This document shows positions 13,194 to 41,280 of a DNA stretch of 64,000 nucleotides, piece after piece. The first letter of the stretch is position 1. The number at the start of each line of letters is the position of its first letter. The stretch covers positions 1,472,001-1,536,000 of the forward strand of contig CBDCOH010000002.1 in the NCBI GenBank assembly GCA_965219685.1. The letters are read 5' to 3'. Below the pieces are notes generated by a model. The model was not told the origin of the DNA. It ran no database searches and was given only the letters and a program-made list of their open reading frames with translations. A program made the position numbers and the translations under genes. The DNA comes from Candidatus Spongiisociaceae bacterium (GTDB taxonomy: Bacteria > Actinomycetota > Acidimicrobiia > Spongiisociales > Spongiisociaceae).

Positions 13194-13270
13194 TTCTCAG
13201 TTGCCGGTTGCCAGGCAACGGACCCCACTCACCACTCACCACTCACCACTCACCACTCACCACTCACCAG
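13194..13270. repeat. Heptamer array: short G/T-rich arm plus (CACTCAC)x6
   Basis: TTCTCAG TTGCCGG TTGCCAG, then six perfect CACTCAC at 13226-13267 abutting the thrC stop. Confidence 0.9.
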
Positions 13271-25399: not shown

Positions 25400-26230
25400 T
25401 CAGGAGCGGCGCTCCTTCAGTACGGCCTCGTACAGGGCCCTGCGGCCGAGGCCGAGCGCGTCGGCCACAGTTCGGACCGCTTGGGACATGGGCTCTCCTT
25501 CTCCCTTGCGCGCCGCTACCTCGGCCACCGCGTGTCCCATCGGGGTGGTGGAACCCGGCCACCCGGCGATGACCAATGTGAACTCCCCCCTCGGAGGCCG
25601 GCGCCGCCACTCTGCCTCGGCCTCTTCGAGGGTTCCCGACCACACCTCCTCGTGTGCCTTGGTCAGCTCGCGGACGACGGTCACGCGGCGGCCACCCCCT
25701 AACGCCGTTACCAGCGACGAGAGGTCGGCCCTGACCCGGGCGGTCGGAGAGAACAGCACGATCGTCCGGCTCTCCGCGGCCAACTCCTCGAGGCGCCGCG
25801 ATCTCTCCCCACCCTTCCGGGGCAGGAACCCCTCGAAGGCGAAACGTTCCGACGGGAGACCAGATACGGCCAGCGCCGCGACCACCGCACTGGGTCCCGG
25901 AACGACCGAGACTGCCGCGCCCACCCGCCGAGCCTCCCGCACCGCGGAGAAGCCGGGATCGCAAACGGTCGGCATCCCGGCATCGGCCAGCAGCGCGACC
26001 GTCGCGCCTTGCTCCAGCCAGAGGGCCAACCGCGCCCGGCGGCCGGCCTCGTTGCCTGCGAAGTAGGACCGGGGCACGGTGGCCACACCCAGATGGTTCA
26101 GCAGGACCCGGGCCCGTCTGGTGTCCTCGGCGAATACCACGTCGGCCTGGCCCAGGACCTCCCCCAGCCGTGGGGACGCATCTCCGAGATGACCGATCGG
26201 GGTGCCGCACAGGACCAACCGGCCGGTCAT
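25400..26230 (-). CDS. rsmI: 16S rRNA C1402 2'-O-methyltransferase
   Basis: GTPIG.L.D, AEDTR, DAGMP...DPG, PGPSA, FEGFLP, RELTK.HEE. Confidence 0.95.
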   Translation of the reverse strand: MTGRLVLCGTPIGHLGDASPRLGEVLGQADVVFAEDTRRARVLLNHLGVATVPRSYFAGNEAGRRARLALWLEQGATVALLADAGMPTVCDPGFSAVREARRVGAAVSVVPGPSAVVAALAVSGLPSERFAFEGFLPRKGGERSRRLEELAAESRTIVLFSPTARVRADLSSLVTALGGGRRVTVVRELTKAHEEVWSGTLEEAEAEWRRRPPRGEFTLVIAGWPGSTTPMGHAVAEVAARKGEGEPMSQAVRTVADALGLGRRALYEAVLKERRS

Positions 26231-27681
26231 GAGTCGGCCAGTCCGAGCTGGGAGCTGACCGATCGCCCCGCCACTGGATCCGATGCCAGCACGAGGGTGA
26301 TCTCCCCCAGATCCCACAGGAGGATCGCGTAGTCGGCGCCTTCCACCCACTCGGTCACCGTATCCACGACGCGGGAGGGACCGACGTCCATGCCGGACGT
26401 TATGAGTTCCCGGATCGCGGTGATCATCTCGGCCTCGTCGGCAAACGAGTCAGCCGAGTAGCGCACCGCGAACACGACGTCCTCGGAGACCGGATGCCAG
26501 AGCATAACGTAGTGGTCCCCACCCCAACCCTCGGCTGCTCGGGCGGCGTTGACCGGGCCGCTGTGGTGCTCCAACAATGTGCGCCAGCGTCGCTCTCCCC
26601 AGGTGCCCTCCTCCACGACCACATAGCCTTCGGCCGAGAGGCGCAGCGGGTCGACGGAGACGGGCGAGTCTTGGTTGCGGTACCTGGCGAGATGCATGAC
26701 CTGCTCGGTCGACTCGGGTGGGTGATCCATTGCCTGGTCGAGAGCAGCCATGCCCCCCAGCCCGTACAACTCGGTTGCGAGCGAGGACCCGGCGCGATAC
26801 GGGAACCGGGCGAGTTCGAGGAGCATCGTAGGAACTCCGTCACGTGACAGTCGGCCACGTTCAGCGGCCTGCCTCGCGACCTCCGCTCTCCGCTCGGGTG
26901 GGAGGGCGTCGAGGTACAGCGACTGTACCAAGAGGGCCTCGCCTTCGAGCAGGGCGACACGGGCCGCAGTCCGATCCGGATCCGTCCCCACTCCCCGAAC
27001 GCTTCCCACCAGGAGCGGTTCGTGCTGGTGGGCCAGGGCATGCACGAGTTCGCCCACCAGCACCCACTGCTGGTACTCGTCCAGTGGATCTCCTCCGCCC
27101 GGAACAACGACGGTCGCGCGCGCGAAGTCGTAGAAAGGTGCGGACACCGGCGGATCGAGGGCAGACGCGGCCTGCTGAAAGACACCCGAGTCGTCGGGGG
27201 CCAGCCCCACCAGCTCCAGCAAGGCAAGGTGACGCCGGAGCTCATCGCGACGGGGAGCGCCCGGACTGGATGGGTACCGCTCGGACAGCTCGTCCGCCGT
27301 CATCGGTTCGAATGTCGGCCGGCGATGGAAGGCGCGGCCCCGAAGGTTCTCCGTGATCGACATCAACTCCGCGACCTGGGTTGCCTGCGCTTGGGGTAGC
27401 GACCAGGGAAGCATCGTCGTGGTGGTGGAGGTGGTCGTGGCGATGGAGGAGGCGGTGGTGGACACCTGGGCGTTGCTCTTGGCCTGGCTGGTGGCGCTGC
27501 CGGAAGACGGGCTGGTGGCATCCGGCGACGCCGTGCCGGTTACGTCGGCGGACGACGTACCAGCGTCGGCCCCAGGGGATTCCACCTCGGTGGAGACCGA
27601 GCGACAACCGGTTGCGATGGTGGTTAACACCACTGAAAGAACCATCACTGCGAGCCGGCCGCGGGCGGAGAGAATGGTCAT
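26227..27681 (-). CDS. Putative lipoprotein with a Ser/Thr-rich linker and a zincin-like surface domain
   Basis: Lipobox-like IATGC, S/T-rich tract, then ELVHAL..QH, ALLEGEA, FPY..G, PP.STEQV.H, AAEGWGGD. Confidence 0.75.
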   Translation of the reverse strand: MTILSARGRLAVMVLSVVLTTIATGCRSVSTEVESPGADAGTSSADVTGTASPDATSPSSGSATSQAKSNAQVSTTASSIATTTSTTTTMLPWSLPQAQATQVAELMSITENLRGRAFHRRPTFEPMTADELSERYPSSPGAPRRDELRRHLALLELVGLAPDDSGVFQQAASALDPPVSAPFYDFARATVVVPGGGDPLDEYQQWVLVGELVHALAHQHEPLLVGSVRGVGTDPDRTAARVALLEGEALLVQSLYLDALPPERRAEVARQAAERGRLSRDGVPTMLLELARFPYRAGSSLATELYGLGGMAALDQAMDHPPESTEQVMHLARYRNQDSPVSVDPLRLSAEGYVVVEEGTWGERRWRTLLEHHSGPVNAARAAEGWGGDHYVMLWHPVSEDVVFAVRYSADSFADEAEMITAIRELITSGMDVGPSRVVDTVTEWVEGADYAILLWDLGEITLVLASDPVAGRSVSSQLGLADS

Positions 27682-27748
27682 GGAACCGTCGAGCCTAACC
27701 CCGATACAACCCGGCGTAGGATAACCGTATGCCGGATTGTGGAACCCG

Positions 27749-29122
27749 ATGCGGGTCGCCCTGATCTCCACGTACGAACTCGGTCGCCAGCCGATCCACC
27801 TAGCCTCCCCCGCCGCCCTACTCAGGGACCACGGCCATGATGTGAGGACGCTCGACCTGGCGGTCGAACCCTGGGACGACGGATTGGTCGCCTGGGCCGA
27901 GGCGATCGCGTTCAGCACGCCCATGCATACAGCTCTCCGGCTTGCGACTGCCGCCGCCAGCCGGGTCAAGGCGGGCCGGATAGGCCTCCCTCTCGCGGCC
28001 TATGGCCTGTACGCCTCCGTGGCGGGTACGGAAGGGCCGTTCGACCGCGCAATCGCCGGTGAGTACGAGCACCAACTACTCGAATGGGTCGGATCGCTCG
28101 AGCACGGGATCCCTGCGACGGGAACCACCACCTACCGGGGTCGCTCGGCGTTCCGGGTACCGGATCGGTCCGGGCTGCCCGCCCTTGATACGTACGCTCG
28201 GCTGCAATGCGGCCAGGACTCCGTATTGGTCGGATCGGTCGAGGCGAGCCACGGCTGCAGGCACGAGTGCCGTCACTGCCCCCTACCGACTGTCTACGGG
28301 GGACGATTCCGGGCGGTTCCCACCGACACCGTGCTCTCCGACATAGAGCGCCTGGTGGAGGCAGGAGCAGGCCATATCACCTTCGGCGACGCGGACTTCT
28401 TCAACGGACCCAGGCACTCGCTCCGAATCGCTACCGAGATGCACCGCCGCTGGCCGCATCTGACCTACGACGCAACCATCAAGGTGGAGCACCTGCGACA
28501 GTACGAGCGCGACCTGGTGACCCTCGTGGAAACCGGGTGCCTGTTCGTTGTCTCCGCCTTCGAGGTGCTGAACGATCGCATCCTCTCGATCCTCGACAAG
28601 GGCCACACCGCCGCCGATGCCTCCCTGGTCGTACATACGAGCCGCCGGGTCGGATTCGAGGTGCGACCCACCTGGCTCCCCTTCACGCCGTGGACATCGA
28701 TCGACGATGTTGCGGACATCTTCTCCTTCGTGGTCTCCCATGACCTGGTCGACCTGACCGACCCGGTCCAGTTGAGCATCCGCCTGCTCGTGCCGCGCGG
28801 CTCCCTTCTGGCGGAGCATCCGGCCTTCCTCCCTTACCGCGGCGACTATGACAACGCTCGGGCCACCTACCGGTGGCAATCCCCCGATCGGCGCGTCGAC
28901 AGCCTGGCCGATGAACTCGCAGAGCTGGCCGAGGAAGGAACCCACGTGCCACCGCGCACCACCTTCGCGCGGATGTGGCGCAGTACGTTGATTGCAACCG
29001 GCCTCGACCCCGGGCCTGCCGACTCGATTCCCCAGGGAGCGACCGTCGGCAGGCCGCGCCTCACCGAACCCTGGTTCTGCTGAGCGGAACCAACCGCGGA
29101 CCAGTTCGGTCCGCTCCGCTAG
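27749..29122 (+). CDS. CUAEP/CCAEP-tail radical SAM protein, probable selenoprotein (in-frame UGA at 29081)
   Basis: STYELGRQP N-terminus, CRHECRHC motif, HITFGDADFFN; C-terminus EPWFC-TGA-AEPTADQFGPLR-TAG. Confidence 0.88.
29084..29119 (+). promoter_or_regulatory. Putative bacterial SECIS element
   Basis: Upper stem GCGGACC/GGTCCGC with loop AGTTC about 20 nt after the UGA; lower stem GCGGA/TCCGC. Confidence 0.7.
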
Positions 29123-29236
29123 TGAATGGTGAATGGTGAATGGTGAAGTTCTAACCAATCACCACTCACCAATCACCACTCACCACTCACCACTCACCAC
29201 TCACCACTCACCACTCACCACTCACCACTCACCACT
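29120..29236. repeat. Head-to-head heptamer array: (TRGTGAA)x4, core, (CAMTCAC)x~11
   Basis: Read directly; fills the gap between two convergent stop codons. Confidence 0.95.
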
Positions 29237-29238
29237 TT

Positions 29239-30684
29239 CTACCAGGCCACGTACTTCAGTTCGAGGTACTCCTCCATGCCGTGGTGGCTGCCCTCGCGCC
29301 CGATTCCGGACTGCTTCACCCCCCCGAACGGGGCAGCCGGGTCGGAGATGAGACCTCTGTTGAGGGCGACCATGCCGGACTCGATCGCCTCGGCCATCCG
29401 GAAGCCGCGGTTTATGTCAGAGGTGTAGACATAGGAGATCAGGCCATGCACCGTGTCGTTGGCCGCGTCGACCACCTCCTCCTCGGTATCGAAGGACACG
29501 ACCGGTGCCACAGGCCCGAAGATCTCATGGTCGAGGATCGTCGAGTCGGGGGACACCTCGGACAGAACGGTGGGCTCGTAGAAGTACCCGGGGCGATCCG
29601 GTGCTCGGCCCCCGGTCCTCACCGTGGCGTCACCGTCCACGGCTCCGGTTACCAGCGAGTCGATCTTCTCAATCGCCTGGGCATTGATCATCGGCCCCAC
29701 CTGGTTGGAGCGATCGATCCCCGGACCCATCCGCAGGACGGACATCGCTTCGGTCAGGCGTGAGGTGAATGCCTCGGATATGCCGCCCTGCACGTAGAAG
29801 CGATTGGCGGCCACGCAGGTCTCGCCCGCGTTGCGCATCTTGGCGAGCATTGCTCCTTCGATGGCGGCGTCGAGGTCGGCGTCGTCGAACACGACGAACG
29901 GTGCGTTGCCGCCCAACTCCATGCTGGTACGCATTATGCGGCTTCCGGCCTTGGCCATGAGCAGCTGCCCCACCTCGGTCGAACCGGTGAACGACAGCTT
30001 CCTGACCCTCGGGTCCTCCAGGATCGTGTCCACAACCCCCGACGAGCCGCGAGCGGTCACCACGTTCACGACTCCGGGAGGTAGACCGGAGTCGGCAAGG
30101 ATGTCCGCCACTGCCAGGGCGGACAGCGGGGTGTCCGAAGCGGGCTTGAGGATGGTCGTGCAGCCCGCCGCCAGGGCCGGACCGAGTTTGCGGGTCGCCA
30201 TCGCCGACGGGAAATTCCAAGGGGTCACCATGAGGGAAATCCCCACCGGTTCGGGCGCCACGATGATGCGCTTGTCGCCGGCCGGAGCAGTCCGGAACTC
30301 GCCGATGATGCGTACTGCCTCCTCGGAGAACCAGCGGAAGAACTCGGCCGCGTACCTGACCTCTCCCAAGGCATCGGCATAGGTCTTGCCGTTTTCCAGG
30401 ACTATCAACTCGGCCAGTTGTTCCTCCCGGGTCAGCATCTTCTCGTAGGATCGTCGAAGGATCTCGCTGCGCAAGCGGGGAGCCGTTGCCGCCCAAGCGG
30501 GGGCCGCTTCCGCGGCGGCGTCGACCGCAGACCTCGCCTGGTCGTGCCCCGCCGTCGAGACAGCGGCCAGCACCTGTTCGGTGGCCGGATCTATCACATC
30601 GAGTTCGCTGATCCCCTCCGCCCACTCGCCACCGATGTGAAGTCCGGTCTTGGGGCCTCGCAACAGTTCGTCAACTACCGTCAT
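29239..30684 (-). CDS. gabD: NAD(P)-dependent succinate-semialdehyde dehydrogenase
   Basis: TPWNFP, SFTGST, MELGGNAPF, RNAGETC, EIFGP, PFGGVKQSGIGREG. Confidence 0.9.
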   Translation of the reverse strand: MTVVDELLRGPKTGLHIGGEWAEGISELDVIDPATEQVLAAVSTAGHDQARSAVDAAAEAAPAWAATAPRLRSEILRRSYEKMLTREEQLAELIVLENGKTYADALGEVRYAAEFFRWFSEEAVRIIGEFRTAPAGDKRIIVAPEPVGISLMVTPWNFPSAMATRKLGPALAAGCTTILKPASDTPLSALAVADILADSGLPPGVVNVVTARGSSGVVDTILEDPRVRKLSFTGSTEVGQLLMAKAGSRIMRTSMELGGNAPFVVFDDADLDAAIEGAMLAKMRNAGETCVAANRFYVQGGISEAFTSRLTEAMSVLRMGPGIDRSNQVGPMINAQAIEKIDSLVTGAVDGDATVRTGGRAPDRPGYFYEPTVLSEVSPDSTILDHEIFGPVAPVVSFDTEEEVVDAANDTVHGLISYVYTSDINRGFRMAEAIESGMVALNRGLISDPAAPFGGVKQSGIGREGSHHGMEEYLELKYVAW

Positions 30685-39253: not shown

Positions 39254-40269
<1,016 letters not shown>

Positions 40270-40273
<4 letters not shown>

Positions 40274-41280
40274 ACCAGCACCCCCTGCCGCCGGTAATGG
40301 CCCAGCAACTCGACGATGCGCGCTGCGTAGCCCCAACCGGTATCGAACCAGACGACCGCTTTGAGCAGGTTGCCGCCGATCATCATCGTCGCCCCGGTGT
40401 CGAAGATTCCGGAGTAGGTGGAACCGCGAACGTCGCTGGACACGATCGGATCGTCGGTGTATCCGAACACGTCCGGGTAGCCGGTCGTGCAGGCCTTGCG
40501 CACCACCTCGTTCACCTGCTCGACGGTGGCAGGGGTTCGCAATCGGGTCACTACGTCTACGGTCGATCCGTCGTCCACCGGAACGTTGAGGGCCTTGGAC
40601 GAGAGTCGGCCGGCCAGGTGCGGGAACACCCCCAGCAGGATCTCGGCCGAGCTGCTGCTCGCAGGGATGATGTTCTCCCCAGCCGCACGGCTGGTACGGA
40701 AGCCCCCCGCCGGAACGTCTCCGAGACGGGCCCGGTTCGTATAGGCGTGAACCGTGGTGAAGAACATCCGGTCGATCCCGAAGTAGCGATCGAGCGTCTC
40801 GACCAGCGGCGCCATGGCGTTGGAGGTATTCGACCCCATTGCCACCACCGGGGGGTCATACTCCAGGATCCCGTCGGTAACGCCGCTCAGAAGGAGCGGG
40901 AGGTCGCCCGGTTGCTCCGTCGTCGACACCAGGATGACCCTCCGGGCGCCCGCCTCCAGATGCCGGGAGCACCACTGCGAGCTCCGGTACTTGCCGGTGG
41001 CCTGGACCACGATCTCCACACCGAGTGCTCCCCAGTCCAAGTCACCGGGCTCGGTGGCCTGGATCAGCGGAATCCGGCGCTCGCCAACCACCAGCACGTC
41101 GCCATCGAGCGAGACCGGCTCCGGGAGAGGCCCGTAGATCGAGTCGTACTTGAGCAGGTACGCCAGGGCCTCACGGTCAGCGATGTCGACGATGGCCCGG
41201 ACGCTCGTCCCGCCGTCGGCGGCGAGTTGGCGGAAGATGTTGCGGCCGATCCGGCCGAAGCCCATCAGACCGATTGACAA
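40270..41280 (-). CDS. GAPDH-like protein lacking the catalytic cysteine
   Basis: GFGRIGR, YLLKYDS, TTVHAYT and ENIIP retained; active-site motif reads GSNTSNAMAP. Confidence 0.9.

Follow-up and report, generated by a model that had tools for sequence, protein, structure and literature searches.

What does an in-frame UGA mean near the 3' end of a gene for a radical S-adenosylmethionine (rSAM) enzyme, and what might the residue it specifies do? The question is raised by a gene at positions 27749 to 29122 (plus strand) in a 64,000-nt stretch of the Candidatus Spongiisociaceae bacterium GCA_965219685.1 (contig CBDCOH010000002.1, positions 1,472,001 to 1,536,000, forward strand). We refer to this whole stretch as the window and give coordinates within it unless another contig or locus is named. 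The genome comprises 4.42 Mb in 2 contigs and is 96.7% complete. Translated with TGA as selenocysteine (Sec, U), the gene is a complete coding sequence of 457 residues, with Sec at position 445 and a TAG stop at 29120 to 29122. The ATG start at 27749 agrees with the family N-terminus MRV..STYELG; an alternative TTG at 27737 is present in the open reading frame listing. A vicinal Cys444-Sec445 dyad is specified by TGC-TGA (29078 to 29083, plus strand), in which TGC (29078 to 29080) completes ...EPWFC and is followed by the in-frame TGA (29081 to 29083). The codons at 29084 to 29119 (plus strand), encoding AEPTADQFGPLR, become part of the protein only with Sec inserted at the UGA, and the predicted read-through C-terminus is ...RPRLTEPWF-C-U-AEPTADQFGPLR. 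The initial annotation of this DNA described a frame that runs to ...EPWFC-TGA and continues to the TAG, and each of these elements is found where it was placed. We conclude from sequence comparisons and from the Sec machinery in the genome that this gene very probably encodes a member of the NF040546 family and that its UGA at 29081 is recoded to Sec by SelB and tRNA-Sec, directed by a downstream stem-loop. We are also fairly sure that the account as a whole, with the identity, the recoding, and the inferred mechanism taken together, is the best explanation of the locus.

Ordinary gene callers truncate the gene at the UGA, which removes the functionally most interesting residue from the called protein. 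Among the aligned database proteins, 90 of 121 homologue rows lack a residue at position 445. Most of the top homologues without CCAEP end at ...WFC, as is expected if gene callers cut at the UGA.

With C in place of U, the whole read-through protein scores 515.6 bits (E = 1.1e-154) against NCBIfam NF040546, “CUAEP/CCAEP-tail radical SAM (seleno)protein,” an equivalog model with a curated cut-off of 500 bits. The alignment places residues 3 to 454 on profile positions 1 to 467 of 468. The family assignment made in the initial annotation is thereby upheld, as the cut-off is passed and both the CxxxCxxC motif and the C-U-A-E-P tail are present. Nothing at the protein level distinguishes this member from the rest of the family: the whole model is matched, and the tail codon is the one at which UGA and Cys alternate. 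The family and its selenoprotein nature are already curated in NCBIfam, and a 90%-identical homologue already bears the family name in NCBI records; the present gene is no new discovery. The family is large and widespread in Actinomycetota and Chloroflexota, and our protein search returned 7906 matches at E <= 0.001 among 8000 scored candidates. A preprint by Haft names the CUAEP/CCAEP family and calls it uncharacterised (10.1101/2022.07.06.499078), and our literature search for CUAEP/CCAEP found this preprint as the only relevant work.

We scanned species-representative genomes for relatives of the gene, found one in 587, and kept 80 loci for comparison. The tail codon is TGA in 29 of these loci and TGC or TGT in 45, and the C-[U/C]-A-E-P tail is present in 74. 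The motif is absent from the other 6, of which at least L033, L055, L074, and L096 are interrupted by a contig end. Cys homologues had been predicted to end in CCAEP, and CC indeed occupies the tail site in 28 of the best 120 protein homologues, in keeping with the 45 Cys-codon loci. Beyond the TGA, the frame keeps the AEPT..Q motif common to the Cys forms. AEPT directly follows the codon in 24 of the 30 TGA sequences and 34 of the 44 Cys sequences, and the rest have near variants (e.g., SEPT, AEPS). In a tree of 73 family members, from which L053 and L100 were left out as too short, the window protein is sister to L021 with 69% identity. Parsimony on this tree requires at least 10 changes between Sec and Cys, and the strongly supported branches force at least 3.

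The predicted selenocysteine insertion sequence (SECIS) is a stem-loop at 29096 to 29114 (plus strand) that begins 15 nt after the UGA, with a 7-bp stem (29096 to 29102 paired with 29108 to 29114) and the loop AGUUC (29103 to 29107). This hairpin, GCGGACC-AGUUC-GGUCCGC, sits atop a lower GCGGA/UCCGC stem. A 61-nt segment spanning the UGA has a folding energy of -24.4 kcal/mol (z = -3.2), and 2 of 200 shuffles fold as stably. We assessed conservation in gap-free 51-nt alignments around the tail codon, handling the TGA and Cys forms separately. Across 29 distinct TGA sequences, 95.1% of the cells of the 7-bp stem are paired and two-sided changes occur at 6 of the 7 pairs, a degree of covariation that none of 500 shuffles reached. 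For 42 distinct Cys sequences, pairing over the same columns drops to 37.4% of cells, no different from shuffles. All 7 pairs form in 25 of 30 TGA sequences, the apical loop is AGUUN in 27 and AGGUN in 3, and the closing pair is C-G in 29. The 5' arm of the lower stem, GCGGA at 29084 to 29088 (plus strand; paired with 29115 to 29119), is specific to this sequence and forms no conserved part of the element, as lower-stem pairing is seen in 53.1% of cells in the Sec forms versus 58.1% in the Cys forms. Of the hairpin originally proposed, the upper stem-loop is thus conserved and covarying, but the lower stem does no better than the Cys control.

The reference for such elements is the bacterial SECIS (bSECIS) model of the fdhF type. 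The present element resembles it as a coding-region stem-loop shortly past the UGA, with a conserved loop G and U and a covarying stem, and differs in that it fills the last 12 codons of the gene. Given this position, the tail residues Q-F/L-G-P/S-L in Sec forms are under constraint from the RNA in addition to the protein. A search of Rfam found no match to a SECIS family, and a permissive scan returned only sub-threshold microRNA-type matches, which lie on a heptamer hairpin downstream of the gene.

The Sec machinery that the initial annotation implied is complete in the genome: tRNA-Sec (selC; 77 bits, anticodon UCA), selA (435.7 bits), the adjacent selB (322.7 bits), and selD (366.9 bits) each exceed curated or gathering cut-offs. 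The selD gene is itself a selenoprotein gene, with an in-frame TGA in ...SPGAGUASKL... (G000:C2:2564589-2565512, minus strand; locus L019). Among sampled genomes, all 5 with the TGA form and 3 of the 5 with the Cys form were found to have selA. The reading of the UGA as Sec is therefore supported by the alternation of Cys and TGA codons, by the covarying stem, and by the complete machinery.

What kind of enzyme carries this tail? The rSAM [4Fe-4S] motif, C170-x3-C174-x2-C177 (CRHECRHC), lies at 28256 to 28279 (plus strand), and none of the three Cys is missing from any of the 121 aligned members; Pfam Radical_SAM is matched at 35.2 bits (cut-off, 29.5). Residues 1 to about 120 (27749 to 28108, plus strand) form an apparent Rossmann-like domain with the motifs STYELGxQP and SxPMHTA, as indicated by invariant family columns, an AlphaFold model, and Foldseek. 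The model, built with 38 family sequences, has a mean predicted local distance difference test score of 93.2 and a predicted template modelling (TM) score of 0.91, with tail blocks at 76 to 83, and its N-terminal domain consists of strands alternating with helices. A B12-binding-like domain had been proposed here; the modelled fold agrees with a Rossmann-like domain, but Pfam B12-binding (PF02310) reaches only 21.7 bits, under its cut-off of 32.1. The top Foldseek matches are AprD4 (best), TsrM, OxsB, MgmA, and MiaB, with TM scores of 0.54 to 0.65, and no ArsL structure is among the matches listed. The modelled fold is the Rossmann-plus-barrel architecture of class B-type rSAM enzymes. AprD4 (6fd2), TsrM (6wte), and OxsB (5ul3) resemble the window protein in fold (Foldseek E = 2.5e-17 to 1e-14; TM, 0.57 to 0.65), yet they share only 11 to 17% identity with it, and none carries a Cys-Sec tail. 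AprD4 is reported to function without cobalamin. The enzyme thus appears to combine an N-terminal Rossmann-like domain, an rSAM barrel holding a single CxxxCxxC cluster, and a linker, some 45 residues long and variable, that ends in the strongly conserved family motif RPRLTEPWFC[U/C]AEPT.

The second-best family match points to a possible chemistry. ArsL (NCBIfam NF040542, RCCLKC-tail), the only characterised relative, matches at 246.1 bits (E = 7e-73) over profile positions 2 to 415 of 423. According to two reports, ArsL, which acts in arsinothricin biosynthesis, cleaves SAM at the S-C(gamma) bond, forms an Fe-C(gamma) organometallic species, and joins the 3-amino-3-carboxypropyl moiety (ACP) to As(III) held by three Cys of a C-terminal CCxxC motif (10.1101/2024.02.01.577332; 10.64898/2026.04.29.721666). 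The same reports state that removal of the tail abolishes product formation and leaves SAM cleavage intact (10.1101/2024.02.01.577332; 10.64898/2026.04.29.721666), and one of them adds that iron and sulfur content is unchanged by the removal (10.1101/2024.02.01.577332). The two proteins share their domain architecture, a homologous catalytic part, and a C-terminal tail with vicinal chalcogen residues. They differ in that the RCCLKC tail of ArsL supplies three Cys ligands, whereas the WFC-U-AEPT tail of the window protein supplies two on a longer linker. In addition, the CUAEP/CCAEP-tail enzyme can be a selenoprotein, and its partner is an amino-acid ligase, without an arsM/arsQ context.

By analogy, the Cys-Sec dyad on its flexible tail would bring S, Se, or a metalloid into the active site as a soft acceptor atom, which would there take over the ACP group of SAM to give a gamma-substituted 2-aminobutyrate. 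This product or its precursor would then probably be handled by an L-amino-acid-ligase-type ATP-grasp enzyme, whose gene shares an operon with the rSAM gene in many lineages. We favour the tail as an acceptor carrier because the catalytic part is common to ArsL and the RPRLTEPWFC[U/C]AEPT motif is conserved; the interchange of Sec and Cys is, moreover, expected for a nucleophilic or ligand role. Our preference for a tail-borne acceptor and ACP transfer is nonetheless tentative, and we place its probability below even. A redox or metal-binding tail, as suggested in the initial annotation, is likewise hypothetical.

The ligase emerged as the one recurrent neighbour when the reading frames of the 80 loci were clustered, and it carries the Pfam domains ATPgrasp_N, ATP-grasp_4, and LAL_C2. 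Its gene is detected by tblastn in 48 of the 80 loci and is directly upstream on the same strand in 40, at an estimated gap of -17 to +100 nt. The window gene differs from these 40 loci in that it stands alone. A ligase remnant upstream of it was considered and rejected, as tblastn with three ligase proteins found none in the window and the upstream gene is a lipoprotein gene on the opposite strand. The genome nevertheless contains one clear ligase orthologue at C2:2513393-2514589, about 1 Mb from the rSAM gene and 45 to 48% identical to the linked copies. Around it (C2:2512690-2514590; locus L104, 7694 to 9590) lies a divergent NfuA-like gene, and genes for a PD40 beta-propeller protein and thiamin pyrophosphokinase follow.

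Across 151 genomes of the class, the rSAM gene is present in 59 and the ligase gene in 68: both occur in 58, the rSAM gene only in 1, the ligase gene only in 10, and neither in 82. These are raw counts over related genomes, which are not independent. The sole genome with only the rSAM gene is 83% complete, and one of the 10 ligase-only genomes has a weak match. In the families f2, f10, f11, and f15, where presence varies, exactly the same genomes are positive for both genes, and in f12 the two agree in 33 of 35 genomes. In a genus of about 1-Mb genomes, the two genes occur together in 15 and neither is found in 18; 1 genome has the rSAM gene alone and 1 the ligase gene alone. In this genus they lie about 69 kb apart. 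The NfuA-like gene (TIGR03341, 105 bits, below cut-off) is divergent beside the ligase gene in each of the 5 rSAM-positive genomes inspected, the present one among them, and in 3 of 5 ligase-only genomes; since it also occurs in the latter, its pairing with the ligase is independent of the rSAM gene. No replacement enzyme is evident beside the ligase gene in five ligase-only genomes (L118 to L122; G058, G078, G013, G138, and G142). No paper in the literature collection searched brings ArsL, rSAM enzymes, and ATP-grasp enzymes together. Relatedness to ArsL, free switching between Sec and Cys at the tail codon, and near-obligate co-occurrence with the ligase make a concrete biochemical test possible.

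It is conceivable, though we consider it rather unlikely, that the rSAM enzyme, the ligase, and an NfuA-like carrier make up a dispersed, co-inherited pathway in which tail-borne S, Se, or a metalloid would receive the ACP group and the resulting amino acid would be ligated into a small dipeptide-like metabolite. If true, the product could be, for example, an undescribed low-molecular-weight thiol or selenol. It would then be a core compound of Acidimicrobiia, Thermoleophilia, and Chloroflexota rather than an antibiotic, with the gene set kept even in marine genomes of about 1 Mb.

Several observations weigh against our account. Read-through of the UGA is a prediction from comparison and gene content. 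ACP-transfer chemistry is assumed from a relative whose tail differs and whose model the window protein matches below the cut-off, with 246 bits against the 450 bits set for NF040542; the alignment covers all but the tail. The tail offers two chalcogen ligands, whereas ArsL binds As with three Cys. C264, the only other conserved Cys, was considered as a third ligand and rejected, as 8 of 121 members have V or L in its place. No ars or other metalloid genes, including arsM and arsQ, are present in the window or in the conserved neighbourhoods, and the retention of the gene in streamlined genomes speaks against a close analogy with ArsL. The ligase gene also occurs without the rSAM gene in 10 genomes, 9 by a strong match, and because these genomes retain it alone, the ligase does not depend on the rSAM gene.

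The main rival to a tail-borne acceptor, which we regard as possible if somewhat improbable, is that the dyad holds no acceptor atom and works as a redox arm, cycling between a selenenylsulfide and a selenolate/thiolate; a product radical or an oxidised intermediate would thereby be supplied with a hydrogen atom or with two electrons. On this view, canonical 5'-deoxyadenosyl radical chemistry would be possible for the enzyme. Mammalian thioredoxin reductase has such a C-terminal redox arm, Gly-Cys-Sec-Gly. The presence of only two tail chalcogen residues, with no obligatory third Cys, agrees with this reading, as do the position of the dyad at the end of a variable linker, an interchange of Sec and Cys that is typical of redox-active sites, and a 1-Mb genome in which the rSAM gene lies between genes for an F420-dependent luciferase-like monooxygenase (LLM) oxidoreductase and a flavin reductase. 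However, the closest characterised homologue, ArsL, uses its Cys tail to bind substrate and not for redox chemistry, and no conserved thioredoxin-type partner stands beside the rSAM gene. The protein might also be a true ArsL equivalent that forms a C-As (or C-Sb) bond on tail-held arsenite, for detoxification or for an arsinothricin-like compound. Homology across the whole catalytic part is in its favour, and CU motifs recur in heavy-metal-handling proteins, according to the Haft preprint (10.1101/2022.07.06.499078). A class I methyltransferase gene also lies two genes downstream in one streamlined genome, but it yields only weak, generic matches. We judge such an equivalence improbable: the tail lacks the RCCLKC sequence, the missing ars context tells against it, and neither this protein nor any from 401 sampled genomes of the phylum reaches the ArsL cut-off. 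In one genus with genomes of about 1 Mb, 16 of 35 retain the gene, which likewise fits a core function better than antibiotic synthesis.

Two further readings have less to commend them. The tail might supply ligands to an auxiliary Fe-S cluster subject to consumption or repair, which would account for the NfuA-like gene found divergent beside the ligase gene in all five rSAM-positive genomes and three of the five ligase-only genomes. This is very unlikely, as only two conserved ligand candidates exist outside CxxxCxxC, the NfuA-ligase pairing persists without the rSAM gene, and the ArsL report gives iron and sulfur content as unaffected by loss of the tail (10.1101/2024.02.01.577332). The UGA might also be a genuine stop, with a protein that ends at ...WFC and with the downstream similarity and hairpin as a relic or terminator. 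Gene callers do end most homologues at this point, as the 90 of 121 rows without residue 445 attest, and an open stretch of 12 codons past a stop is not improbable in G+C-rich DNA. We give this reading hardly any credence, since conservation past the TGA resembles that in the Cys forms, compensatory stem changes occur in the TGA forms only, the Sec machinery is complete, and the family cut-off is reached with the tail read through.

The remaining neighbours of the gene family look lineage-specific. They comprise aceE in 24 loci, ABC-2 transporter genes, an alpha/beta hydrolase gene, and DUF169 in 13 loci. The aceE gene (pyruvate dehydrogenase E1) lies within 8 kb of the rSAM gene in 24 of the 80 loci (among L022 to L095), in Acidimicrobiia and Chloroflexota, and the Chloroflexota loci also hold genes for E2, E3, lipB, and lipA; its proximity could be synteny or a functional link. 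DUF169 was rejected as a partner: it adjoins the gene in 13 of 80 loci but has no match in the present 96.7% complete genome. Long open frames across the ligase and rSAM genes (e.g., 887 aa) were judged to be chance, as in L067 the ligase match is in another frame than the rSAM gene, and no search for a fused form was made. In one genome of about 1 Mb (G005; L105, 4960 to 9077), a Cys-form rSAM gene is part of a tight same-strand run of genes for an MTHFS-like protein, an F420-dependent LLM oxidoreductase, the rSAM enzyme, a flavin reductase, and a class I methyltransferase.

In the window itself, the rSAM gene is flanked by a lipoprotein gene that diverges from it and an aldehyde dehydrogenase gene that converges on it. 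The lipoprotein gene (26230 to 27681, minus strand) lies 67 bp upstream and encodes 484 residues with a signal peptide and a lipobox-like ...ATGC; it scores 73.6 bits against the Hvo_1808 surface-protein family, below the cut-off of 200. Beyond it lie rsmI-, tatD-, ksgA-, ispE-, glmU-, and prs-like genes. The converging gene on the downstream side encodes a succinate-semialdehyde-type aldehyde dehydrogenase, and a phosphoglucomutase gene is also present there. A consensus scan of 27500 to 29350 found 0 promoter and 0 terminator sites.

Two tandem glyceraldehyde-3-phosphate dehydrogenase paralogues occupy 39254 to 41280 on the minus strand. Directly after the TAG, heptamer arrays of (GTGAATG)x3.7 and (ACCACTC)x11.9 extend over 29122 to 29236, and arrays also occur at about 13230 to 13264. 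The arrays after the TAG fold jointly into a long imperfect hairpin between the convergent genes (-32.1 kcal/mol, z = -6.0). The ACCACTC array is dispersed genome-wide at dozens of sites, with 461 overlapping pattern matches on both strands.

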